Below, piece by piece: positions 1 to 12,465 of a stretch of 12,715 nucleotides of DNA (position 1 is the first letter of the stretch; each line of letters starts with the position of its first letter). The stretch lies in the IMG/VR virus record IMGVR_UViG_2565956711_000001. One strand, given 5' to 3'. The translations under genes and the position numbers were made by a program. This stretch comes from a virus. Taxonomy: Monodnaviria; Loebvirae; Hofneiviricota; Faserviricetes; Tubulavirales; Inoviridae. Below the pieces are notes generated by a model that was not told the DNA's origin, did not search any database, and saw nothing but the letters and a program-made list of their open reading frames with translations.

Positions 1-297
1 TCACCATTCCTCACGCCTTGCCGGTGAATCAAACTCCTTTTCTACAAAATTTGCAGGGTTTGTATAAGTTGAAAGCGGTGCAGAACTGAGCGAAATCTCC
101 ACCCCTAAAATATTTAACACTTTGTATAGACGCTCAAAACTTGCTTTTGAAGGATTTGACTCAAGGCGAGCATAAGTCTGCTGGGTTATACCCAACATGG
201 CAGATAATTCTCTTTGAGTTAATCCTTTTGATTTACGAAAACCAATTAGAAGTGGACGTAACTGGCTAAGAAGTCTAACGGGAAAAATAGTATCCAT
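1..297 (-). CDS. XRE-family HTH DNA-binding protein, HipB-like antitoxin/regulator (98 aa); any cognate toxin gene would lie beyond the left window edge
   Basis: Complete ORF with ATG at 295-297 and TGA at 1-3. The translation has a Cro/CI-type helix-turn-helix (GLTQRELSAMLGITQQTYARLESNP) and ends in ...EEW, like the C-terminal Trp of E. coli HipB (recalled from memory). No clear Shine-Dalgarno sequence. Confidence 0.55.
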   Translation of the reverse strand: MDTIFPVRLLSQLRPLLIGFRKSKGLTQRELSAMLGITQQTYARLESNPSKASFERLYKVLNILGVEISLSSAPLSTYTNPANFVEKEFDSPARREEW

Positions 298-413
298 AAG
301 TAGGTGGCCATGTCGATTACTTCATAATAAATTCACTCCTCGTAAGAAACAGCCTGTAAGGTGTCTTATTACTTTACAGCTTACAAGGTGTAAGGGTGAA
401 CTCGTTGTATTAA

Positions 414-608
414 CTAATACTGCTCAAATTTTAAAGGTTGCATCTCGCGCTGGCTGGGATTATATTTATTAAGGACTAGCATATAGTGGTGTACGCTGTT
501 ATCCTCTTTGTAATGAGGCTTATCAGTGTGTGAAGGGAGAGGGCGGACTCTGCTTTGCCCTCTCTCTTTCATGGACTTATTTAACTTTAAATGTTTTTTA
601 AAAGTCAT
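414..608 (-). CDS. Small basic hypothetical protein (64 aa), possibly translationally coupled to the upstream gene
   Basis: Its ATG (606-608) overlaps the TGA (605-607) of the 186-aa ORF in an ATGA arrangement. AT-rich; no recognisable motif; could be spurious. Confidence 0.3.
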   Translation of the reverse strand: MTFKKHLKLNKSMKERGQSRVRPLPSHTDKPHYKEDNSVHHYMLVLNKYNPSQREMQPLKFEQY

Positions 609-1165
609 TGCCTTATTGCAATGGTTTTATTAAAAATCCCAATCAATGTGTTTATTTTTTCATTTATCTTAATTTGCTTTTTCTCTTGCTCGAGAGAAAG
701 TTTTCTGAATTCATTTTCCCTGCTCGGCACGGCAATTATCAACTCTTCATAAATCTCCTTTGCTCCTGATACTTTTTCCAACTCGCTGCTGTATTTTTCG
801 ATAAGAGTTCTTATTTGAATATTTACATTTCTGTATTCATGACTGGTAGCACTTAAAACAAGTTGACTGGAATTTTTTTTGGGTGCCTCAATTAACTCTA
901 CGCTTTTCTTTACGACATTGAATTCAGATGTGACTGAGTATACATATTGATACGCGCCTGATTTTCTGACTTTACTCAATAATCCTTTTCTAACTAAACA
1001 CTGAATTTGGTTATAAGCAAAAGCTTTTGCCTTAAAATAACTTTTCGGAAGTGAAAATCGCTCGATAAGAATTTGAGCCACATCGTTACTGGTGAAGTTA
1101 TCTTTAGCAATATAGATTATTGCGGAAAATATGTACGACTCAGCGTTGGATACTCGACTATTCAT
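605..1165 (-). CDS. Hypothetical protein (186 aa), possible winged-helix N-terminal region plus lysine/glutamate-rich C-terminal coiled coil
   Basis: Uninterrupted 186-codon ORF with ATG at 1163-1165, in a markedly AT-rich stretch compared with its flanks. The C-terminus (EKKQIKINEKINTLIGIF) looks coiled-coil. No clear Shine-Dalgarno sequence. Confidence 0.5.
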   Translation of the reverse strand: MNSRVSNAESYIFSAIIYIAKDNFTSNDVAQILIERFSLPKSYFKAKAFAYNQIQCLVRKGLLSKVRKSGAYQYVYSVTSEFNVVKKSVELIEAPKKNSSQLVLSATSHEYRNVNIQIRTLIEKYSSELEKVSGAKEIYEELIIAVPSRENEFRKLSLEQEKKQIKINEKINTLIGIFNKTIAIRQ

Positions 1166-1262: not shown

Positions 1263-1595
1263 GTGTCTGAAAAAAATCCGATACCAGAAAGACTTAAGGA
1301 AGCGAGAAGCAGGGCGGGTTTATCACAGCGCTCATTGGGCCTCCTTGTTGGGTTTGATCCCGCTTCGGCTAGCAGTCGTATGAATCATTATGAGAAAGGG
1401 CGCCATGTCCCCGATATTGATACGCTTCGACGGATGGCGGCAGAGTTAAACGTGCCGTTGAACTACTTTTTTTGTGATGATCAGACCACAGCTGAACTTG
1501 CATTACTCATATCCCGGATGACAGAGGAAGAGCGAAGTAATCTTATCGAAGCACTCAAAAGGCATCCAGGCGAAAAGCATGCTGACAAAAAATGA
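1263..1595 (+). CDS. XRE-family (Cro/CI-type) helix-turn-helix transcriptional regulator (110 aa)
   Basis: The translation contains LKEARSRAGLSQRSLGLLVGF...MAAELNVPLNYFF, a typical HTH_XRE fold signature. The only in-frame start is GTG at 1263, preceded by a weak purine-rich stretch; TGA at 1593-1595. GC content is higher than in the neighbouring AT-rich genes. Confidence 0.7.
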   Translation: MSEKNPIPERLKEARSRAGLSQRSLGLLVGFDPASASSRMNHYEKGRHVPDIDTLRRMAAELNVPLNYFFCDDQTTAELALLISRMTEEERSNLIEALKRHPGEKHADKK

Positions 1596-1799: not shown

Positions 1800-2234
1800 T
1801 TATGACGACTTATGTAGTTCCCGAATCATATGGTTGGCCAACAGGCTTTCCACCGGTATAACCGAATTGATTTTTACCGCTTTGACAATTTCTATCAACG
1901 AAAGGGTATTTTGCGCTAATTGGTCTCGCAATTCACTTACTTCAGCCTGCAACTGCTGGTTTCTGGCCAGTAAAGCCTGACGGGTTTTGCGGTTGACGTA
2001 TTGCTGTTTTTCTTTTGGGCGTAGATTCAATGGGCCAAGTTGCTGGTCAACATAGGCAGCAATTAGGCGTTTACGCTCTAGGCTGCTCAGCGTACTTAAA
2101 CCACCGTTAACGATACCTTTTGCCTTGAGCCTAATATGCAGGGCCTTGGCGGAAATAGGGGACTTGTCAAAGCCTTCAACCAGCATCAGTTGTAATTCGT
2201 GCTCAATCAGTGTGTTCAGTTCCTTGCCGCGCAT
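1800..2234 (-). CDS. Small coiled-coil protein, fourth gene of the tri-recombinase operon (GinD-like or TnpC-like accessory protein)
   Basis: Its ATG at 2232-2234 overlaps the TGA (2234-2236) of the upstream 788-aa recombinase in an ATGA arrangement. The ORF track starts one codon earlier at TTG 2237. Coiled-coil segment NQQLQAEVSELRDQLAQN. No catalytic motif recognised. Confidence 0.6.
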   Translation of the reverse strand: MRGKELNTLIEHELQLMLVEGFDKSPISAKALHIRLKAKGIVNGGLSTLSSLERKRLIAAYVDQQLGPLNLRPKEKQQYVNRKTRQALLARNQQLQAEVSELRDQLAQNTLSLIEIVKAVKINSVIPVESLLANHMIRELHKSS

Positions 2235-4600
2235 CAATCATTCTCCTGCATCAATTGTTGGTATTCAAGTGCAAAAAGCTGGGCCAGTGTACGGACTTTG
2301 CCCTCGGTGATTACTCCACCAGACAACACACTCTCAGCAGCAACCAGTTGTTGAGTCTTGGCACGACGATGCCATTGTGCTTGTATTGCCTCGAGTTGCT
2401 GTAACCGTCGTTCGATGTCGGCCAGTCTGGTCTGGTAATCAGGCTGATGTTGAGTAAGTTGGGTCAACTTCGAATGTGCTTGCTGTAAAGCCTGTTTTTT
2501 GGCAATCAGATTTGGTAGCTCATCTATCCGGCCTGTCAGCGTGAAATGTTCACAAAAGGCAGCACTCTGGCATTTCAGTCGATAAGGACATCCCCAGAGG
2601 TTAACTTCCCGCATACAGGAGCCAAATTTCAGCGGATACAGCACGGCATGTCTTGCCACCATGTCAGAGGCTTGCTCTGGTCCTTCTGCGTCGCGGATTT
2701 CTTCAAAGGCGGCAGCAACATCTTCAAAGAGGCCGTTAGCAAATGACGCCTCGACAAACCTGGCTACATCATCCCGATCGTCAAAAGTATGCAGGTTGGC
2801 TTTGATGGTATTGTCCAAAGTCATGTGTTCCGTGACCGCCAGTTGGCCGGTCCGTTTGACGATATCCAGTGGCGTAGCAATGGAGGACGAAGAGGGCGAG
2901 ACAGTTAGTGCTGTCGAAATCGGCTGCAAGGGCACCAACGAGGCGGCTTTTCGCCGTTCTGCAAGCGCCAGATGTTGATAATGCTGATTCTGCGTGATGT
3001 CCACTCGACCCATCAACATTGCCTGTAAGTGGTCAGAGATATCCGCAATAGCAAGAAAGGTATTGATGTTGTGCCGGGGAATGTGGGTACGCATCCGCGT
3101 CGAGGTGCCATCCTCCTCCAGTAATTGATATTTGCTGAATACTGATCCATCAGGCTCAACGTTGCCTAAGAATTTATTCATAAGTGTGTTAGTGAAGGGT
3201 ATCGGTGTAGCCAGCAAAGCCAGTGTGCGCTTTAATGCCAGCGAACCCTTCTCGTGTAGAAATAGCAGATCCTCGTAGTTAACTTGGTAGCGTTTGCCAT
3301 TTTCCATCCAGGCGTGTGTACAGGGTTCGTTGGCATTCGCCAGACCAAATTCGGTCTTAATGTAATGATTGAGAGCAGTCTTGGAATAATAGATAGATTT
3401 GCTGTTTTTCGGGCCTGGTATTTCTTGAACGGGCAGCACACCTCTTTTGCTAAGGGCTTTGGATGTTTTGTCCCGTTGTCCTGCCCGGCCCCGAAAACTT
3501 GAGGTAGTTTGGGTGATGTACTTCACCACATCGTCCAGTTCGACTCGTTCACCGGGCATGTTGCTGATGGCCTGTGGCAGGTAATCAGCAAAAGATTTTG
3601 CCCGTAGATAGGTAAGATGGCTGCGTATTGGTGCGGTCAACATTTTAACGGTACTGAATATACTCTCGACCAGCGGTACTGCCAGCGGTTCTACCCAATG
3701 CGTTCGCTCCCCAGCACCTTTGACACCAACATAACGGATACCAAGAAAATAATCGGGTAATCCCTTGTCCTGAAATCGTTTGCAGATTGCCGGATCATCA
3801 ATCTGGCGTTTAAACAGGGCATCCTGTCTGAGATTAAACGCTTCAATGGAGCGAAAGCCGGTAATAACCAATAACAACAGGCAATTTAACGCGATTTTCT
3901 CAGCATCACTTTCCACCCGCTGGATTAATGCAACTATGTTCAGAAATCCGCGAATGGTAATCAACGCATCTTCACCATCGGTAGTGGTATCAGACAGCTT
4001 GGCCTGCTGTTTCAGCGCCATGGTTTCCCGGGCTTTGCGGGTCAAGTTGGTTTTGTTGGTATACTTCACATCAGAGTTGTATTGCAGTTTAACCAACGTA
4101 AATGTGAAGTGATTGACCAATTTTTGAAGGCTAACGCACCGCCCTTTATAGTTAGCTGTATTGGGGTCACTAGGAGATGAAACGCTACTGAGAAGATCCA
4201 TCGCTCGTTGAATGACAACTGTGCTCAGGTAAGATGGATGGGTCTGTCCTGTCTCATAAAGCATCGCATGGTACCATCGTTTCAGAATCATCAAAGTTGC
4301 CTTTGCCACCGCTGGCGACATACTCCTATTTCCCTGTCGGTAAACCACTACCAGCATAGCTTTCATGAACTGACTATATTCTTTGTCGATGGGCAGATGT
4401 TCTACAATACCTTTGAATCTGTTCATCTCATCAAAACGTAATGTATTTCTGCCGTTCCCTCGCAACCATCCACTTCCCTGGTTACCACTTACCCAGATAT
4501 GATCATTCCATGTTTGGGCAAAATCAGCAGACAGGTGCTGTTCGAACCATTTTTTTTGCTCTTCAATAAAAGCCTGAAAATGCTCAAAGTGATTTTTCAT
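2234..4600 (-). CDS. Tyrosine site-specific recombinase, large (788 aa), third of three tandem recombinases (GinC-like), with a C-terminal Cys4 and coiled-coil extension
   Basis: Box I-like arginine in VITGFRSIE. Box II-like HIPRHNINTFLA ... LMGRVDITQNQHY gives the R-H-R-Y catalytic pattern. C-terminal cluster CMREVNLWGCPYRLKCQSAAFC followed by a Q/L-rich coiled coil. ATG at 4598-4600 is preceded by AGGTGA; the start overlaps the upstream gene by 17 nt. Confidence 0.8.
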   Translation of the reverse strand: MKNHFEHFQAFIEEQKKWFEQHLSADFAQTWNDHIWVSGNQGSGWLRGNGRNTLRFDEMNRFKGIVEHLPIDKEYSQFMKAMLVVVYRQGNRSMSPAVAKATLMILKRWYHAMLYETGQTHPSYLSTVVIQRAMDLLSSVSSPSDPNTANYKGRCVSLQKLVNHFTFTLVKLQYNSDVKYTNKTNLTRKARETMALKQQAKLSDTTTDGEDALITIRGFLNIVALIQRVESDAEKIALNCLLLLVITGFRSIEAFNLRQDALFKRQIDDPAICKRFQDKGLPDYFLGIRYVGVKGAGERTHWVEPLAVPLVESIFSTVKMLTAPIRSHLTYLRAKSFADYLPQAISNMPGERVELDDVVKYITQTTSSFRGRAGQRDKTSKALSKRGVLPVQEIPGPKNSKSIYYSKTALNHYIKTEFGLANANEPCTHAWMENGKRYQVNYEDLLFLHEKGSLALKRTLALLATPIPFTNTLMNKFLGNVEPDGSVFSKYQLLEEDGTSTRMRTHIPRHNINTFLAIADISDHLQAMLMGRVDITQNQHYQHLALAERRKAASLVPLQPISTALTVSPSSSSIATPLDIVKRTGQLAVTEHMTLDNTIKANLHTFDDRDDVARFVEASFANGLFEDVAAAFEEIRDAEGPEQASDMVARHAVLYPLKFGSCMREVNLWGCPYRLKCQSAAFCEHFTLTGRIDELPNLIAKKQALQQAHSKLTQLTQHQPDYQTRLADIERRLQQLEAIQAQWHRRAKTQQLVAAESVLSGGVITEGKVRTLAQLFALEYQQLMQEND

Positions 4601-6149
4601 TGGACTTCACCTGTTCCTGATGAAAACGGCAGCGGGCGATAACAGACTCAATTTCAAACTGTGTGGTTTCATGGATTAAAATGAGCGGATTTCGGGAATT
4701 ACCTACACCGTCTGAAATAGCGATTAGTTCATCGACTTCTTTTTTGACGCATTCAAGTAGAGCCTGATGTTCACCATCCGTAAAAGGGCGATAATACAGA
4801 CAGCCGTAACAAGAACGCACTTCGCTGAAAGGGCATGTACTACTGTTCCTGGAGCAACCACCAATTTTATCATGCAACTCGTCACCAACGAGTCCCACCA
4901 CTGGATGGCCTTTCCAATGTGCTGAGTCGACCAGTTCCCCAGTGAGCATCATAGCCACCATATTTTGCCAAACGGGATTCGACCCAAGCGCTTTAGCACG
5001 GATCAAGGCCAACGCGGGAGTTGCCATAATGTAGTATTTAGCTACGGCAAGAGAGGTGTGCCCCAGTACATGTGCTATCTCTTCAGCGCTAGCACCTTGC
5101 ATCGCCAAAGAGTGCCCAACATTGTGGCGTAAATCAGTGGGTGTAATTGTGGGCAATGCAGCTTCGCCACATGCTACGGCGGCTTGATATTCAGGAGGAC
5201 AGAAATTTAGGATTGCCTGATTAATTGCCTGAGACACATAATGCGGAGCTGAAACGCTGAAATCGAATAGTTTATCTTCGGGGTTTTTCTTATATCTCAC
5301 GGTATAGTTCATAATTAACTCCCCAATTTCTGGGGGGATCGCCAGAAATAACCGCTCTGTCGTCACTCGTCTTTGTTTAGCATATGGTAAAAAAACACTG
5401 TATCGAATCAGACCAGATTCCTGATTTCGTGTATCGATACGAACATCTTTGACCGCCAGCCTAGCGAGTTGTACTGGGCGTGCACCCGTTACATAAGCCA
5501 ACCCAAGGATAGCTGCATTGCGCACTTCGCTGTGACTGAAACTTTTGCCATCGCGTAACAACGAAGCCATTTCAAACAGTCCATTGCAAATCATGTTTTT
5601 TTCAAGAGGGTCAAGAATATTATCGATTTCTTGGTAACCCCCCCAATGTTCGAGATACGGTCGAGGGACGAACTCAAGATCATCGTAATCTTCAAGATTG
5701 AAACCTGGGAATGTTTCAGCACAAAGTATTTTTAATCCGAATAACACGGAATAAAAAGTAGCATTATCAATATCCTCTTTTTCGATAAATAATCGGAGCG
5801 TACTAAGCGAAAACCCACCATGTTCTCGACAATATGAAATGATATTCCTCCAATCAAGGTGCAACGCTGGAAGTTTGGTTGGAAATCTCGTCGATGCATA
5901 TTTGAAACAGATATACTTGTTTAATTTATTTGAGATATAATCTTGATTGAAAACAAGATATCGCCGACTGCCTGAATAATCGAAAGTCCATTTATTTCCT
6001 TTGTTAACAATATATTTATCATCAAACTCCATTGCCGTTTTTAGATAAATTCGATCAGGAATATCGAGTTCAAAGATAGCCTTAGCTAAATCAGGAGGGT
6101 AAACTGAGTTCCCTTCGTCAGATTTTAATGCATTATCAAATGATGTCAT
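4584..6149 (-). CDS. Tyrosine site-specific recombinase (521 aa), second of three tandem recombinases (GinB-like)
   Basis: Box I LGLAYVTGARPVQLARL. Box II TDLRHNVGHSLAMQGASAEEIAHVLGHTSLAVAKYY matches the H-x-x-R ... LGH ... Y pattern. C-terminal Cys cluster CSRNSSTCPFSEVRSCYGC. ATG at 6147-6149 overlaps the upstream gene by 14 nt. Confidence 0.8.
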   Translation of the reverse strand: MTSFDNALKSDEGNSVYPPDLAKAIFELDIPDRIYLKTAMEFDDKYIVNKGNKWTFDYSGSRRYLVFNQDYISNKLNKYICFKYASTRFPTKLPALHLDWRNIISYCREHGGFSLSTLRLFIEKEDIDNATFYSVLFGLKILCAETFPGFNLEDYDDLEFVPRPYLEHWGGYQEIDNILDPLEKNMICNGLFEMASLLRDGKSFSHSEVRNAAILGLAYVTGARPVQLARLAVKDVRIDTRNQESGLIRYSVFLPYAKQRRVTTERLFLAIPPEIGELIMNYTVRYKKNPEDKLFDFSVSAPHYVSQAINQAILNFCPPEYQAAVACGEAALPTITPTDLRHNVGHSLAMQGASAEEIAHVLGHTSLAVAKYYIMATPALALIRAKALGSNPVWQNMVAMMLTGELVDSAHWKGHPVVGLVGDELHDKIGGCSRNSSTCPFSEVRSCYGCLYYRPFTDGEHQALLECVKKEVDELIAISDGVGNSRNPLILIHETTQFEIESVIARCRFHQEQVKSNEKSL

Positions 6150-7530
6150 CGTTATATCTATCCATTATAGTATCTAACGTATTATGTAGCGCTGCATTGT
6201 CTTGAATAATTCGTTGGACATTGGCAGCATTAGCCTGCTCAGACAGGAAACGTTTTGCATATAGATCAGGCATTTGACTTGTCGGACTCCATCCCCCCAT
6301 CAGTCGTAGTTCATCTTTAGCTTCTTCCATTATCCCTGAGAGGGAAGGGACTTCAGCAATAAAGTGTGTTTTATTTTGCTGGCTTTTCAAATATTTTAAA
6401 TGCCATATTTTTTGCAATGTCAAAAAGGCCCAAGTATGTCGGGTTGTATGCGGAGTCAATCGTTGCAACGAGTCAGAGTACAACGGTGATTTGTACTCTG
6501 GATATTGGTTAGTGAAGACCTGATCTATTTTCGAAAAAATAGAATGAACTGATGTGTAGGACAAAGGCTTCGCTGACTGTTGACTCGATGTAAAGATGAA
6601 ATCGTGTTTATCAGTTTTTGGTCGAAGCTTTGCTATATAAATGCTTAAAAAAATATAATCCTGCTTATCGAGCTCCAACACACGATTAGCCCATGCATTT
6701 TTGAGAGATGGCGCATTCTTTCTTGGTTCGTATGCCTCGTCGACAGTTGTCACAATCAAACTAAACTTATCACCTTTTAAATTAGGTTTAATTGAGCTGC
6801 ACTCTAACAACAATAGCTCACCTGTTCGTAAACCATAATTTAACAACAGACGAATAATCAAAAAATTGCGGAACTGAAGATGCCCGGAAGGGAAAGGATT
6901 TAGCGGGTTATGCTTTTGGGCAGAAGAGGGGGTTATTATTCCATACAGGCTGAGCACCATTGCCCCAGACAAACTCTGAAATCCTTGGCTGCTGTGACTA
7001 TGTTGCGAAAATTTGTTTGATGTAAGCGTTCGATAATTCTCCCGGCAAAGCTGTAAACGGGTGTGTAAACGCGAAGCCAAAAGTGATAATGCTTTGGGAG
7101 AGTCATCCCGGTATGCAGGTGATATGTAGGTGTTAATCAAAAAAGAAATGAAATGGATCACAGCACGAACTCTAACTGTATGAGTTAAGCTATTGGCTTT
7201 TGTGACTCTCGTTAAAGACAACACATTTGACTGGACGTTGTGGCCATTTTCTAGATACATCCAAAATGCGGGCATTTCACCGACAGCAATGTCTGGATTG
7301 TGGTCAGATGAATAGAAGCTGTAGCAAAACGAGACACCATACTTTTGCCTCCAGAATTCGTAAAAAAACTTCACAGATTGAAGTGAAGCTGACTGTGTGG
7401 ACAATGAGCGGAAAGCCAAATGGTCAATATGGTACCTAAGGGGATACAGCAACGGCAGAGAGGTTTCCAAGTCCATCAGGATCCATCGCCTTTTACGGCC
7501 TGAGATAACCAACTGCTTTAGTGAATACAC
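6136..7530 (-). CDS. Tyrosine site-specific recombinase (464 aa), first of three tandem recombinases (GinA-like)
   Basis: C-terminal LTPHTTRHTWAFL ... LMGGWSPTSQMPDLYAKRF matches the H-x-x-R ... Y catalytic motifs of the integrase family. GTG start at 7528-7530 is preceded by GAGGT about 7 nt upstream. First gene of the operon, reading away from dif. Confidence 0.8.
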   Translation of the reverse strand: MYSLKQLVISGRKRRWILMDLETSLPLLYPLRYHIDHLAFRSLSTQSASLQSVKFFYEFWRQKYGVSFCYSFYSSDHNPDIAVGEMPAFWMYLENGHNVQSNVLSLTRVTKANSLTHTVRVRAVIHFISFLINTYISPAYRDDSPKALSLLASRLHTRLQLCRENYRTLTSNKFSQHSHSSQGFQSLSGAMVLSLYGIITPSSAQKHNPLNPFPSGHLQFRNFLIIRLLLNYGLRTGELLLLECSSIKPNLKGDKFSLIVTTVDEAYEPRKNAPSLKNAWANRVLELDKQDYIFLSIYIAKLRPKTDKHDFIFTSSQQSAKPLSYTSVHSIFSKIDQVFTNQYPEYKSPLYSDSLQRLTPHTTRHTWAFLTLQKIWHLKYLKSQQNKTHFIAEVPSLSGIMEEAKDELRLMGGWSPTSQMPDLYAKRFLSEQANAANVQRIIQDNAALHNTLDTIMDRYNDDII

Positions 7531-7701: not shown

Positions 7702-7986
7702 AGTGCGCAGATACGCCAGAAATCAGCCTGTAACCATCACCACGGCATTAAACGGTCATCGCTGTTACGTTCTTTCGTCTTCGACCGTCAGCCATCCGTA
7801 TCGCTTCTGAATACGCCGGAATGAAAAACAGGCTTTGCAGTGCCGGGAATTATTATGGCTGACGCCATAATGCTGTTTATGTCCTCGCTTCGCTGCGGGG
7901 CTTCCGGCGCTAAGCGCCTCCCATGCCTGACGGCATAAAAACCGGATATGCCGCCACGTCACCGCATGATACGTCCGTCGCCACCA

Positions 7987-9249
7987 TCACCGCGCGCGCT
8001 CCTCGTGGGAACTCGGTGCGTGCGCGGCGCTGGCGCGCCTGACTTTTTTCGCCTGTAACACGACAAGAATATCCGTCTTGTTCTTCTCGTCAGATGAACT
8101 GGTGAGCCAGCCTTTTGGCAGAAAGCTGAACCCGGTATCGGCGTTTGTGACCTTCGATTCAGCCAGGCCACCCAGCAGAATAATATCCCCGTCAGCCGCT
8201 GATACCTCCGTATTCACCTCGCGCTTAATCAGCGTCGGGCTGTTATTCACGCCCGTATCCGTCTTCGCAAAGCTGGAAAGCTGCTGCTTAATCACAAGGT
8301 CAATATTGTCAGTCCGGATTTGCGGTTTCACGTCGAGGATAACGCCACTAGAGCGATATTCAATCGACTGGATCGGCCTGTTGTCGGCGTAGCTCACCTG
8401 ACCCAGCACCGGAACCTCGTTACCGACTGAAAACGTGGCAGATGCGCCATCCTTCACCCTGAGCCGCGGGGAACTGACGACATGAAAACGACTGTCCGTC
8501 CTGAAAAGCTCATACAGCGCATCAAGAGAGCCTGTATTCACCCGGATAAAGTTATCAAAACCGCCAGACGCGCCAATCTGTATATTCAGCTTGCCGGAAA
8601 GCAGCTTCGCCGCCAGTGCCAGCCCGGAACCGTTACGCTCACTGGTCTGAACCTCAAACACGTAAGCTGCGACAATCACTTCTTCAGAGGCAGTATCAAT
8701 CAGCGGTAAAAGCGTCTGCAACCGCTTAATCTCTGACTTCCGGCCATAATAAACCAGCACATCCCCGGTACGGTTCATAAAGTCCGATGCCGTACCCGCT
8801 ACGGCCGCTTCTGGCGATATCTGCCCGGACGGTAACGAGTTACGCTGACTGTTAAACTGCCCGGTAAACTGTCCGGCCAGAATGTCAGACAGATACGCCA
8901 CGGAACGGAAGCGAGGCCGATAAACAAAGGTCTCCTGCGGCGGCACATACACTTTCGGCGTGAACGGCGCCACGTAGTCAATGCCCTGTTTGTTATAAAT
9001 CGCAATGTTCATATTGCCGAGATAGCGCTTAATAAATGCCCGTTCATCGATATCCGGCGTGATACGGAACGTCACCACCTTATCGGATTTGGCAAGCTCC
9101 GGGTCAAGCATAAACGGCTTATCGAACACCTGAACGTAAATCATGTTCAGCGCCTGCGGCAGCGGAACAGCGTTGAGCTCCAGACTGACGCCCTTCGCCA
9201 TAACCAGCCCCGGAACCAGTAAAAAAAGTAAACCTGTTATCAGCTTCAT
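7987..9249 (-). CDS. Filamentous phage pIV-like outer-membrane secretin (420 aa)
   Basis: N-terminal signal peptide (MKLITGLLFLLVPGLVMA). C-terminal secretin-like segment (VVSSPRLRVKDGASATFSVGNEVPVLG ... GDIILLGGL). Its ATG overlaps the Zot/pI stop in an ATGA arrangement at 9246-9249, and it sits immediately downstream of the pI-like gene as in Ff phages. Confidence 0.8.
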   Translation of the reverse strand: MKLITGLLFLLVPGLVMAKGVSLELNAVPLPQALNMIYVQVFDKPFMLDPELAKSDKVVTFRITPDIDERAFIKRYLGNMNIAIYNKQGIDYVAPFTPKVYVPPQETFVYRPRFRSVAYLSDILAGQFTGQFNSQRNSLPSGQISPEAAVAGTASDFMNRTGDVLVYYGRKSEIKRLQTLLPLIDTASEEVIVAAYVFEVQTSERNGSGLALAAKLLSGKLNIQIGASGGFDNFIRVNTGSLDALYELFRTDSRFHVVSSPRLRVKDGASATFSVGNEVPVLGQVSYADNRPIQSIEYRSSGVILDVKPQIRTDNIDLVIKQQLSSFAKTDTGVNNSPTLIKREVNTEVSAADGDIILLGGLAESKVTNADTGFSFLPKGWLTSSSDEKNKTDILVVLQAKKVRRASAAHAPSSHEERAR

Positions 9250-10280
9250 CGTATCGCCCCTGAATAAACCGTCACCGTTTCGCCGTCGATTTCACCCGTC
9301 ATCATCATGCCGTCAAAGCTGAACTGCGAAGCCGGCTCTATACGCAATCTGCCTGACGTGTCTGCAACAACAACCCATGCCTGACCATCGCGTTTAAGCC
9401 GTCCGGCAAGTCGCCATTTGTCCGACACAACGGGCTTAGCTGGCGCGGCAGGTACAAAAGACGCTGAATTATTTGCGGCGGGTAAATCTTTAGTCTGCTG
9501 TTCAGGCTCTGAATTACCGTTTGACGTGAAAAACCAGAACAGATAAAAAATGGCAATTACCGCCAGAATCAGTAACCCGACAGCTTTAAACCACAACATT
9601 TTAGAACTGAAAATATTCTGACGTTTATCGGTGACAAGTTCCCTTCCCTGCCCGTTCTCATGGGATTTATATAGGGGGAATATCGCCTTGTCATATTTAT
9701 TCTGATAACTGTTCGTCAGATTCGACTTAAACAGTTTGATACCCGTAAATACGTCCACACGGTAGCGGTTATGCAGACCCAGCGCCACATGCTTACTCAT
9801 GCGATACGTTGTTTCCACCCGGTCTTTAATGAATCGCGGAAGGTTGGCAACAGACTGATTCATAACCACTAAATCACAGGTTACGCCCGTTTTTTCATCG
9901 GCAAAATGGCGATGTTCTGCAATGAAAGAGCGATGATTTGCAGGAATCCCTTTATCGTTCTCCCATATGCGCCATGCTTCATCAATACAGATTAAATCCC
10001 CCGGACGGCAGAACGTATCATCCGCAATGCCTGAATCCGTTTTGTAGGGAAAGAAATTATCGTTCTGAACGTCTTCATTCTGAACAAGTAAAATTTCACC
10101 AAGTGATTCCCTGTCTGCCTTTTTAATATCAACGCAGTAATCATAAATACTTTGCGTGGCAAGGCCGTAAATATTACTGACAATGCGACGCCCAGCGATA
10201 CAGGCGGGAATAATGACGCTTGCCACCACTTCGTAAGATTTACCGCTTCCGGGAATGCCCACATACGCAGAAATAGCCAT
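9246..10280 (-). CDS. Zot/pI-family filamentous phage assembly ATPase (344 aa)
   Basis: Walker A motif GIPGSGKS near the N-terminus, Walker B-like LICIDEAW, and a single predicted transmembrane helix (AVGLLILAVIAIFYLFWFF) separating the cytoplasmic and periplasmic parts. This is the architecture of Ff gene I and Zot. Confidence 0.85.
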   Translation of the reverse strand: MAISAYVGIPGSGKSYEVVASVIIPACIAGRRIVSNIYGLATQSIYDYCVDIKKADRESLGEILLVQNEDVQNDNFFPYKTDSGIADDTFCRPGDLICIDEAWRIWENDKGIPANHRSFIAEHRHFADEKTGVTCDLVVMNQSVANLPRFIKDRVETTYRMSKHVALGLHNRYRVDVFTGIKLFKSNLTNSYQNKYDKAIFPLYKSHENGQGRELVTDKRQNIFSSKMLWFKAVGLLILAVIAIFYLFWFFTSNGNSEPEQQTKDLPAANNSASFVPAAPAKPVVSDKWRLAGRLKRDGQAWVVVADTSGRLRIEPASQFSFDGMMMTGEIDGETVTVYSGAIR

Positions 10281-10283
10281 AAA

Positions 10284-10571
10284 TTAACCAATCAAAGGAA
10301 TGCGACGAATAATAAAGCGCGTTAACAATGCTGAAAACATCAGTTTAATCCCTTCCGTGACCATAAACAGATTCACGAAATACCATACGCTATCAGGTAG
10401 TGAGGAAAACAACCCGGCAATATCAACAGATTTTGGCAACAGTGACGCCAGAACCGGAACAAACGCCTGTACGACAAAGTACAGGCCAAAAAACAGAATA
10501 AATTTGACAACCACCGTTCGCAGCACAAAACCCAGCGCCACGTTAAAGGCTGAAACCAGAATACCAAACAT
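10284..10571 (-). CDS. Filamentous phage pVI-like minor coat / membrane protein (95 aa)
   Basis: Small, very hydrophobic protein placed between pIII-like and pI-like genes. Strong Shine-Dalgarno sequence GGAGG about 5 nt upstream of ATG at 10569-10571. Confidence 0.6.
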   Translation of the reverse strand: MFGILVSAFNVALGFVLRTVVVKFILFFGLYFVVQAFVPVLASLLPKSVDIAGLFSSLPDSVWYFVNLFMVTEGIKLMFSALLTRFIIRRIPLIG

Positions 10572-10581
10572 AACGCCTCCG

Positions 10582-12465
10582 TCACGCAGTCAGAATGATA
10601 CGCAGCGAAATAATGCCCCAGATAAGCAGGAATACCGCTTTCAGAAGTGGCCTGATTTTTTCCAGAAGCTCGCAGTGAGAATCAATGGAATATTTATTGT
10701 CCCAGAGTTCGAACGACCATACCGGACACTGAACATCCTTCGATGAAATACTCAGGTTTTTAATGTCCGGCATTAATTCTGTAATTGGCTTGAGAATTTC
10801 CTCACCTGTAGGCGGTTTTTCAAGTTCCGGCGATTTAATGCCGGGGTCTTCGCCTAAATCAACAGAAGTATCGGTATCTGTGCCTGTACCAGGGTGTACA
10901 CCTGTATCCGTTCCCGCACCGGGTCTGGCATTAACCCACGACTGAGGAACGACAACCGGACTATAAAGCAAGCCCTTATCAAGTTTTACGCCAACAGCAT
11001 TAGCCGCAGCCGTCAGTTCAGCCGCCGTAAAAGGTTTATCAAGCGGTATCCCCTGATATCCTTCCTGAACAACAGTCTGACCTGCAAGGCCATTAATAAG
11101 ATTAACCAGCGCAGCCGGGTTTAACTGTTCCTCCGGCTTGAAATCTATATTATCAATAACCTCGCCATTAATTACCTGAGGTAAATTTGATGTATCAAAT
11201 TCTGTATTAAAAAATATCTGGTCTTTAACATCCTGAACATCATTCGTCGTTTTATACACGGCCTTCTCAGGGTGGCAAATACTTTTCCACTGCGTTTTGG
11301 GATTATCAGCCGTACTGCCCGGCGCAGGTACTTTCTCGCTTTTACATAAATCCCATGAGTTTTCAAGCGTAACCGTTGTTGTTCCAACAGATAAAACCAC
11401 AGTTACAATCGATGAATATCCACCAAAATAAGGATTCGGCTTTTCATACTGAAAGTCTTTAACGGAAACCGAATAAACCTTAAAATTTCTTGGCATCCTG
11501 ATATGTAAGTTATTGTCGTCAGACGCCTCATGATAAGTCACATTGGAATGAGAATAACCATTAATCGACTTATAAAGCGCAATCATTACCGGATTATCAC
11601 TGACAAGTACAGCATCGCCCTTTGCATCCCTGATATCAGTCGAATAAGGATATTTAGTACCCTTAACTGACACACGATATACATCATTCGGTAATGGCTG
11701 GCTTATCGGCGGTGGTGCATCAATATTGTAATAGGTTGGCGCAATCTGAACAGGTTTAACCTGATGATTATAAGGGCTTATCGAGTCCTGAATATTCTTC
11801 GCAGAAAAGCCAGTAGCATCAGAGGGCAAATAAACAGCAACAGGGCTTTTAGGTGAAGGTGCAACAGAAGAAGTAACAGTAGCGCCATTGGACAAATTAA
11901 GTAAATAAGTTCCATCATCCTGTTTTATTCCACTTGTAATATATTCAACAGCTTTTGCGCCCTGCTTTAAAGCAAGGTCAGCAACGGAAATAACACCCGC
12001 AGCCTGCCCCAGCAATCCCCATGTTGTCTGTCCGGCAGCCATCATATTACTGCCAAAACTTGAAATACCCGTGGATATCGAATCGTCAATTGTATGCTTC
12101 GCAAGGCCATAAGCAGCCGCGAAAACTGACGTTCCGGTGCAAAGCTGAGGATTACCCACTTTCTCGCCACACATGCGGATTGAATCAAAAACGTCAGGAC
12201 GTTCGCGTATAACCTCCGCAGCGACAGCGATACCCGCGCCCATACCGAGAGAACTGGCACCCGTTGCGAATACACGCCCCGCAGATTGAGAAACAACCTG
12301 AGCTTCACGGGTTTCAACCATTTGCTGAATTACACGTCCAAATCCGTCTGCTGTTACTGCATCAGCATGTACACCGGATGAAACCAGTAAAGACAATATA
12401 GTAATACCTAACTTTCCAGACCCTGAATGACCGCCCAGGCGCATAAAAGCCCCCATAAAAAACAC
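10582..12465 (-). CDS. Filamentous phage pIII-like adsorption / minor coat protein (627 aa by ORF track; true start probably the ATG at 12442-12444)
   Basis: Signal peptide (MRLGGHSGSGKLGITILSLLVSSGVHA), a G/T/D/P-rich linker (PGAGTDTGVHPGTGTDTDTSVDLGEDPG) and a C-terminal hydrophobic anchor (LLKAVFLLIWGIISLRIILTA). Sits between pVIII and pVI. The ORF track start at 12465 is GTG; the ATG at 12442-12444 is preceded by a GGGGG purine run. Confidence 0.65.
   Translation of the reverse strand: MFFMGAFMRLGGHSGSGKLGITILSLLVSSGVHADAVTADGFGRVIQQMVETREAQVVSQSAGRVFATGASSLGMGAGIAVAAEVIRERPDVFDSIRMCGEKVGNPQLCTGTSVFAAAYGLAKHTIDDSISTGISSFGSNMMAAGQTTWGLLGQAAGVISVADLALKQGAKAVEYITSGIKQDDGTYLLNLSNGATVTSSVAPSPKSPVAVYLPSDATGFSAKNIQDSISPYNHQVKPVQIAPTYYNIDAPPPISQPLPNDVYRVSVKGTKYPYSTDIRDAKGDAVLVSDNPVMIALYKSINGYSHSNVTYHEASDDNNLHIRMPRNFKVYSVSVKDFQYEKPNPYFGGYSSIVTVVLSVGTTTVTLENSWDLCKSEKVPAPGSTADNPKTQWKSICHPEKAVYKTTNDVQDVKDQIFFNTEFDTSNLPQVINGEVIDNIDFKPEEQLNPAALVNLINGLAGQTVVQEGYQGIPLDKPFTAAELTAAANAVGVKLDKGLLYSPVVVPQSWVNARPGAGTDTGVHPGTGTDTDTSVDLGEDPGIKSPELEKPPTGEEILKPITELMPDIKNLSISSKDVQCPVWSFELWDNKYSIDSHCELLEKIRPLLKAVFLLIWGIISLRIILTA

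Follow-up and report, generated by a model that had tools for sequence, protein, structure and literature searches.

The gene at the left edge of the window (throughout, the whole 12,715-nucleotide stretch of DNA analysed here) encodes a 98-residue protein that, by its sequence and modelled fold, is a member of the HipB antitoxin family. No toxin gene accompanies it in cis, and in this sense the gene is an orphan; it is also the last conserved gene of a GInt island before the variable defence cargo. We consider it probable that this HipB-subfamily member, parted from its HipA kinase, is maintained at the border between the conserved part of the island and its Gabija cargo as an autoregulated, labile repressor.

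The HipB-like protein and its upstream region

The gene is a 98-codon open reading frame on the minus strand (positions 1-297), and its stop codon forms the first three letters of the window. Its product (MDTIFPVRLL...FDSPARREEW) consists of an XRE/HTH_3 core at residues ~10-70, a disordered linker at residues 72-89 and the tail SPARREEW, and the Pfam HTH_3/XRE domain is recognised with E=3.6e-15. Both the XRE assignment and the terminal EEW named in the original prediction are therefore borne out by this reading frame. The proposed likeness to HipB was checked by alignment and held as well, HipB being the best match by NCBIfam models, by PDB sequence and by structure comparison. More specifically, couple_hipB and HipB are the two top-scoring NCBIfam models, with scores that lie under the curated cut-offs in both cases (37.0 bits against 71.65 for couple_hipB, TIGR03070; 36.2 bits against 79 for HipB, NF007271), and the top PDB sequence matches are E. 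coli HipB entries. An AlphaFold (AF2) model, for which 16 homologues served as input, has a confident core (pLDDT 81-88 at residues 11-60) and drops below 50 at residues 73-90 and 96-98, with disorder predicted from residue 73 on. When this model was compared with the PDB using Foldseek, all of the top 14 matches were HipB, with a TM-score of 0.83 normalised to target 3dnv_B. Taken together, the HTH_3, PDB sequence and Foldseek matches point to an XRE-type HTH of the HipB fold.

The codons of the C-terminal tail (residues 90-98, DSPARREEW, with Trp98 last) occupy positions 4-30 on the minus strand. In the family alignment, P92, R94, R95, E96 and W98 are invariant or almost so, in orphan and partnered members alike. 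A disordered tail with a conserved terminal Trp is a trait of HipB antitoxins, and the 98-residue protein possesses it.

The regulatory region of the gene (298-413, minus strand) holds two candidate operators, which are 16-bp imperfect palindromes lying 27 bp apart, start to start, as read on the plus strand. The proximal candidate, ACAGCCTGTAAGGTGT (349-364), starts at -67 from the ATG on the gene strand and the distal candidate, ACAGCTTACAAGGTGT (376-391), at -94. Each is an exact match to the family motif ACASC-N6-GSTGT (that is, ACA[G/C]C-N6-G[G/C]TGT), which we derived by eye from the aligned upstream regions of relatives. These are the only two exact matches in the 12.7-kb window; 0.02 matches are expected by chance from shuffled sequence, and none of 200 shuffles gave two. 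Among the loci fetched, the motif recurs at 27-28 bp spacing 5' of nearly all relatives and ends 20-70 nt 5' of the start codon, and both the position and the spacing of the proximal candidate are conserved among the GInt-type relatives. Judged from these sequence patterns, the upstream palindromes are plausible operators of the 98-residue protein's gene. No convincing sigma-70-like promoter was found 5' of the ATG by consensus scan of positions 298-413, and an Rfam search of the window returned no matches.

The upstream inverted repeats had originally been put forward as possible operators, and this idea survives in a different form. Repeats are present: CTTAC-aaggt-GTAAG (CTTACaaggtGTAAG) was correctly placed at 380-394, whereas CTGTAAG lies at 354-360 rather than 353-359 and TTACAG at 374-379 rather than 375-380. 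Inverted repeats of 5-7 nt are not above chance in this DNA (13 inverted pairs in 341 nt), and the repeats that were named are mispaired fragments of the two 16-bp palindromes; it is the latter that are plausible operators.

A site at 1761-1776, one mismatch away from the motif, was considered as an extra operator and rejected, as it sits in a hairpin 3' of ginD and is absent from other GInt variants. This hairpin, GCCGACAGCTTCCCGGTTGTCGGC in its minus-strand reading (1752-1783), begins just past the ginD stop and is confined to GInts having the present gin variant, and is therefore likely a terminator-like stem rather than an operator. An exact match to the motif, ACACCCGCGTTGGTGT, occurs about 150 nt into gajB, outside the window (locus L001, 11656-11671). 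Although kept in three Gabija-carrying variants, it is intragenic and has a GC-rich spacer, and we set it aside as probably a chance match in the sequence. A motif scan found no further conserved operators elsewhere in the island, so that the gene's own promoter is the sole regulatory target seen there.

The downstream neighbour and the GInt island

According to the original prediction, a HipA-like kinase gene might follow beyond position 1 and complete a HipBA-type toxin-antitoxin module next to the island. We examined the leftward extension in public assemblies that encode the exact 98-residue protein (10 places shown, 25 contigs read). In all 10 places a UvrD-helicase gene lies 88 nt downstream in convergent orientation, with gajA behind it. 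PADLOC models identify this pair as GajB (UvrD-type helicase, E=3e-194) and GajA (ATPase-nuclease, E=4.5e-240) of the Gabija defence system. A complete E. coli genome, NZ_CM169492, matches positions 1-1200 of the window at 100% and has the same convergent gajB arrangement. A hipA-family kinase gene directly downstream in the same operon is absent from all contigs read; neither HipA nor HipT nor any other kinase stands at this place, and the proposed module falls because the next gene is not a kinase-type toxin. Three-frame translation of the 88-nt spacer revealed no similarity to HipA N-termini, and the spacer between the convergent genes (88-96 nt) folds no better than shuffled sequence (z=0.52), giving no sign of an intrinsic terminator. 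In strain EC09, a single hipA lies within 20 kb to the left or right: the chromosomal K-12 type, some 10 kb away and accompanied by its own hipB.

Other reading frames near the gene were weighed as partners and discarded. The 64-aa ORF at 414-608 on the minus strand has no RefSeq annotation and no family match, and it is only 52-55% conserved in a variant whose HipB-like gene is 87% conserved. It also encloses a strong GC-rich hairpin (533-568, minus strand), and for this reason it is probably not a gene. The hairpin has a 12-bp stem, a fold z-score of -4.0 and no U-tract, and lies 37 nt past the stop of the gene for a 186-aa protein (p186; 605-1165, minus strand). This protein was itself considered as a toxin partner; it is encoded 307 nt away, is missing from other orphan contexts and has no family match.

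To the right of these genes lies a recombination operon, ginDCBA (1800-7530, minus strand), which encodes proteins of 145, 788, 521 and 464 aa. Both ginA (6136-7530, 464 aa) and ginB (4584-6149, 521 aa) carry a Phage_integrase domain, while ginC (2234-4600, 788 aa) and ginD (1800-2237, 145 aa) have no significant family match; all four are on the minus strand. The ginABCD arrangement defines GInt islands, whose description likewise gives GinC as lacking domains (PMC5385486). We based the assignment on gene layout, domain matches and comparison of flanks: three consecutive tyrosine-recombinase-like genes, the first two with Phage_integrase, are followed by a small fourth gene at one end and then by cargo. 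E. coli GInts with Gabija, Hachiman and other systems have been reported by homology to the reference GinA, GinB and GinC of Pseudomonas (PMC10121019). The flanks of the island vary among genomes and include hipA, a filamentous prophage (as in the window), a phage terminase and an ISNCY element. Sequence identity between contexts stops about 155-172 nt past ginA, depending on the genome (near window position 7702 in the comparison with locus L002), and a shared end sequence on the gin side, beginning TGGTGCGCATAATGTATATTATG, is found near this point.

Three genes form a block between ginD and the cargo: HTH110, the gene for p186 and the HipB-like gene. HTH110 (1263-1595, plus strand) encodes a 110-aa HTH protein of the C-protein type, matched by the PADLOC model 'Control_protein' (restriction-modification C-protein type) with E=1.2e-25, and is divergent from the gene for p186, its companion in the block. 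Across divergent GInts, in which GinC is 30-98% identical, HTH110 is 91-98%, p186 74-87% and the HipB-like gene 80-96% identical. The sequence 3' of the HipB-like gene differs from one GInt to another, being Gabija in some, a truncated gajB with Hachiman-type genes or other sequences elsewhere. Because the block is kept while the downstream sequence varies, the HipB-like gene belongs inside the island, where the conserved part borders on the cargo; it had been placed next to the island, and it is in fact within it, on the cargo side of the gin recombinase operon. The three integrase-like genes with a small fourth, the variable cargo and the varied insertion contexts are shared with the GInt islands described in the consulted portions of PMC5385486 and PMC10121019, in which we found no mention of a block of HTH110, the 186-aa gene and the HipB-like gene between ginD and the cargo.

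Several further features of these loci were observed. In strain EC09 (locus L011), the cargo to the left of the window comprises Gabija, a 932-aa SEC-C/AAA_22 protein, an AlbA/Schlafen-like protein (PADLOC PDC-S50) and a 1366-aa NACHT protein, and an ISNCY element and a Shedu nuclease gene lie between the island and the chromosomal hipBA. Next to the island copies of loci L001 and L010, the chromosomal hipA is reduced to its last 128 residues. A deletion fuses ginB with ginC in L009, and in L010 ginA is joined to the 186-aa gene with loss of ginBCD; the E. coli island copies of L001, L009 and L010 are probably immobile. On its other side the island adjoins a filamentous-phage (inovirus-like) block (7987-12465) that encodes a secretin (420 aa), a Zot-type assembly ATPase (344 aa), a 95-aa DUF2523-type protein and a 627-aa protein with no family match. 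The same junction of island and inovirus-like block is present in a public assembly (L005).

Partnered and orphan relatives

A database search placed the 98-residue protein in a compact Enterobacterales family of proteins of 94-103 residues, 50-63% identical to it, which share an invariant recognition helix QQTYAR and a C-terminal PARRE-x-W, with a variable linker between them. The protein has all the traits of this PARRE-x-W subfamily, namely full-length similarity, QQTYAR, the tail and the ACASC-N6-GSTGT operator motifs, and it is 53-63% identical over 98 aa to the partnered members. We fetched 80 species-level loci and scanned them with HipA proteins. In 47 of the 80, a full-length hipA of ~440 aa starts 4 nt past the stop, and the family is for this reason a real HipB subfamily. 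The partnered kinases carry the couple_hipA (HipA N-terminal) and HipA_C domains and are 59-92% identical to the Serratia copy and 39% to K-12 HipA. The 47 partnered loci have on average 3.5 copies of the operator motif, most having 3 or 4, and the 36 orphan loci average 2.1, with 2 as the usual number.

A complete hipBA module of the same subfamily is located on IncHI2A conjugative megaplasmids. Of 5426 complete E. coli genomes, 285 contain a module of this type at >=80% query coverage, with >=95% identity in nearly every case, and relatives occur on 1535 PLSDB plasmids. Several genomes carry both an orphan and a partnered copy; strain TC24, with the orphan and the IncHI2-plasmid module together, is the single such case among the matches listed.

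In a neighbour-joining tree the GInt copies form one clade, and other orphans fall into separate clades found after TnsD/TniQ genes (Tn7-like), beside a KAP NTPase gene and in a Salmonella island. Orphans that turn up sporadically between partnered copies represent recent remnants, recognised by hipA stubs (48 aa, kept in L049 and L068) or by in-frame stops (L066 and L098). These scattered remnants, together with the separate orphan clades, lead us to infer that hipA was lost on many occasions and that, on mobile elements, no fewer than three orphan lineages have persisted for long with the tail intact.

Members of the Tn7-like lineage (L070, L075, L079, L080, L082-L084, L086 and L097) are 99 aa long, end in LPARREKW and have two operators; they lie directly 3' of TnsD/TniQ genes and ~500 nt 5' of a gene for a 628-aa OLD-family ATPase-TOPRIM nuclease (e.g. 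L084, 3145-8689). In the Salmonella loci L023-L027, an orphan-type 98-aa HipB gene stands 440 nt 5' of a different XRE (112 aa) and HipA-like kinase (425 aa) pair, which is unrelated to the orphan HipB upstream of it. On the other side, reverse-transcriptase and AAA_15 ATPase genes are present in four of these five loci.

Within the GInt clade, whose proteins are 71-100% identical, the reading frame is intact in every member. For the HTH core dN/dS is estimated at 0.12-0.46 and for the linker at about 0.3-1.1, and the tail shows few or no replacements. The gene occurs in 276 of the 5426 complete E. coli genomes and has been retained even where GinC of the GInt is only 30% identical. As judged from these comparisons of coding sequence, the GInt orphan clade is under purifying selection.

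Possible roles of the orphan gene and comparison with known systems

As the probable explanation, we propose that a dimer of the 98-residue protein binds the operators at -94 and -67 and would thereby repress its own promoter. If E. coli HipB is a guide, the disordered tail would make the protein Lon-labile, and such lability would allow its level to respond to stress. The final 16 residues of E. coli HipB form a Lon degron, and its W88 is conserved and occupies a pocket of HipA (PMC3376134, PMC10627512). Since operators and tail are the same as those of the IncHI2 HipBA in the same hosts, the 98-residue protein is likely able to bind the plasmid operators, and one may speculate that it also binds the IncHI2 HipA in trans.

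A second reading is that the protein acts in trans as an antitoxin, in an anti-addiction or anti-defence role, so that the host survives the HipA kinases of other elements, for example post-segregational killing by IncHI2 plasmids. We regard it as possible, if on the whole doubtful. Long-lived orphan lineages on different mobile elements, at least three in number, have preserved both the recognition helix and the PARRE-x-W tail; IncHI2A plasmids in these hosts often carry HipBA of the same subfamily, and orphan and partnered copies meet in several genomes. Moreover, the distal operator ACAGCTTACAAGGTGT has 15 of the 16 bases of ACAGCGTACAAGGTGT, the promoter-proximal operator of the IncHI2-plasmid hipBA (L087). 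Antitoxin-toxin pairs are usually specific, however, and the orphan and the plasmid HipB share only 55-56% identity. Nor is the conserved tail proof of a kinase partner, because the tail and W88 of E. coli HipB are dispensable for HipA affinity (PMC3376134). A role in trans has already been proposed for an orphan hipB carried by a plasmid (PMC11541004). It is a rather doubtful extension of the same idea that unrelated mobile elements (GInt, Tn7-like and KAP-NTPase island) each keep an orphan HipB, its operators and kinase-facing tail intact, as a trans-acting immunity factor, which would silence the promoter and neutralise the kinase of HipBA on IncHI2 megaplasmids or other invaders. If this were true, the host would be shielded from plasmid addiction or from HipA-based abortive defence.

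We think it unlikely that the gene is an island regulator recruited from a HipB ancestor to control gin-mediated excision, the 186-aa gene or the defence cargo. XRE regulators beside defence genes are common, the gene holds a fixed position at the junction of conserved block and cargo in GInts, and orphans occupy an analogous place right after the transposition genes of Tn7-like elements. Operators are nevertheless seen only 5' of the gene itself, the sites near ginD and in gajB being in a hairpin and within a coding sequence, respectively, and relatives have the same gene with different cargo downstream.

Still less probable is a decaying, functionless remnant left when hipA was deleted during cargo exchange. 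Recent remnants clearly do exist among the sporadic relatives with hipA stubs or in-frame stops, and the GInt orphans have only two operators where hipBA loci mostly have three or four. Decay is at odds, however, with the intact reading frames and constrained HTH core of the GInt clade, with a tail that is kept while the linker drifts, and with the persistence of the gene in GInts despite recombinase divergence to 30-65% identity and in the E. coli genomes counted above. A complete HipBA module with its kinase gene just beyond position 1, as the terminal Trp of a HipB-like protein and the hipA gene 4 nt downstream of most of its 50-60%-identical relatives might suggest, can for practical purposes be dismissed given the convergent gajB in every contig read, including NZ_CM169492, a spacer free of any hipA remnant, and a hipA within 20 kb that is solely of the K-12 type and paired with its own hipB.

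An autoregulated repressor without a kinase in cis thus remains our preferred reading. For annotation, the case corrects a tempting call: a HipB-like gene at the edge of a contig is no evidence of a HipBA toxin-antitoxin module. It also defines a HipB subfamily by an operator motif and a tail motif that others can use. At least three kinds of mobile element carry orphans of this subfamily as long-lived passengers, beside defence genes, and the complete module resides on IncHI2 resistance plasmids in the same hosts. If the orphans act in trans, the stability of IncHI2 plasmids would be affected; if they only repress themselves, the finding is an ordinary one.

Compared with E. coli K-12 HipB (PDB 3DNV, 2WIU, 4YG1), the 98-residue protein has the same predicted arrangement of an N-terminal strand, four helices including the HTH, and a C-terminal strand, the same disordered C-terminal tail with a terminal Trp, and likewise several palindromic sequences, here candidate operators, upstream of its gene. 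It differs in sharing only 26% identity with K-12 HipB and in scoring under the NCBIfam HipB cut-offs. The operators also differ, TATCC-N8-GGATA for K-12 HipB against ACASC-N6-GSTGT here. K-12 hipBA has four operators (PMC3376134) and the window two candidates, and hipA follows hipB there and is missing here.

Much closer is the HipB of IncHI2A plasmids (97 aa; EC1107-IncHI2-226K; WP_024136327.1, with HipA WP_000088046.1), a member of the same subfamily at 55-56% identity. It agrees with the 98-residue protein in length, in the QQTYAR recognition helix, in the PAR-x-E-x-W tail and in operator motif and spacing. At the plasmid locus there are four operators, and hipA starts 4 nt downstream, whereas the window gene has two candidate operators and no kinase.

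With the plasmid orphan hipB of PMC11541004, the window gene has in common that it is a hipB-type gene without hipA, carried on a mobile element among defence or anti-defence genes. The carrier differs, being the leading region of a plasmid there and a GInt island here, and the two are likened by their genetic context. Orphan antitoxins on mobile elements are a known kind, of which the HipB-family putative repressor carried on the GInt island is a new instance.
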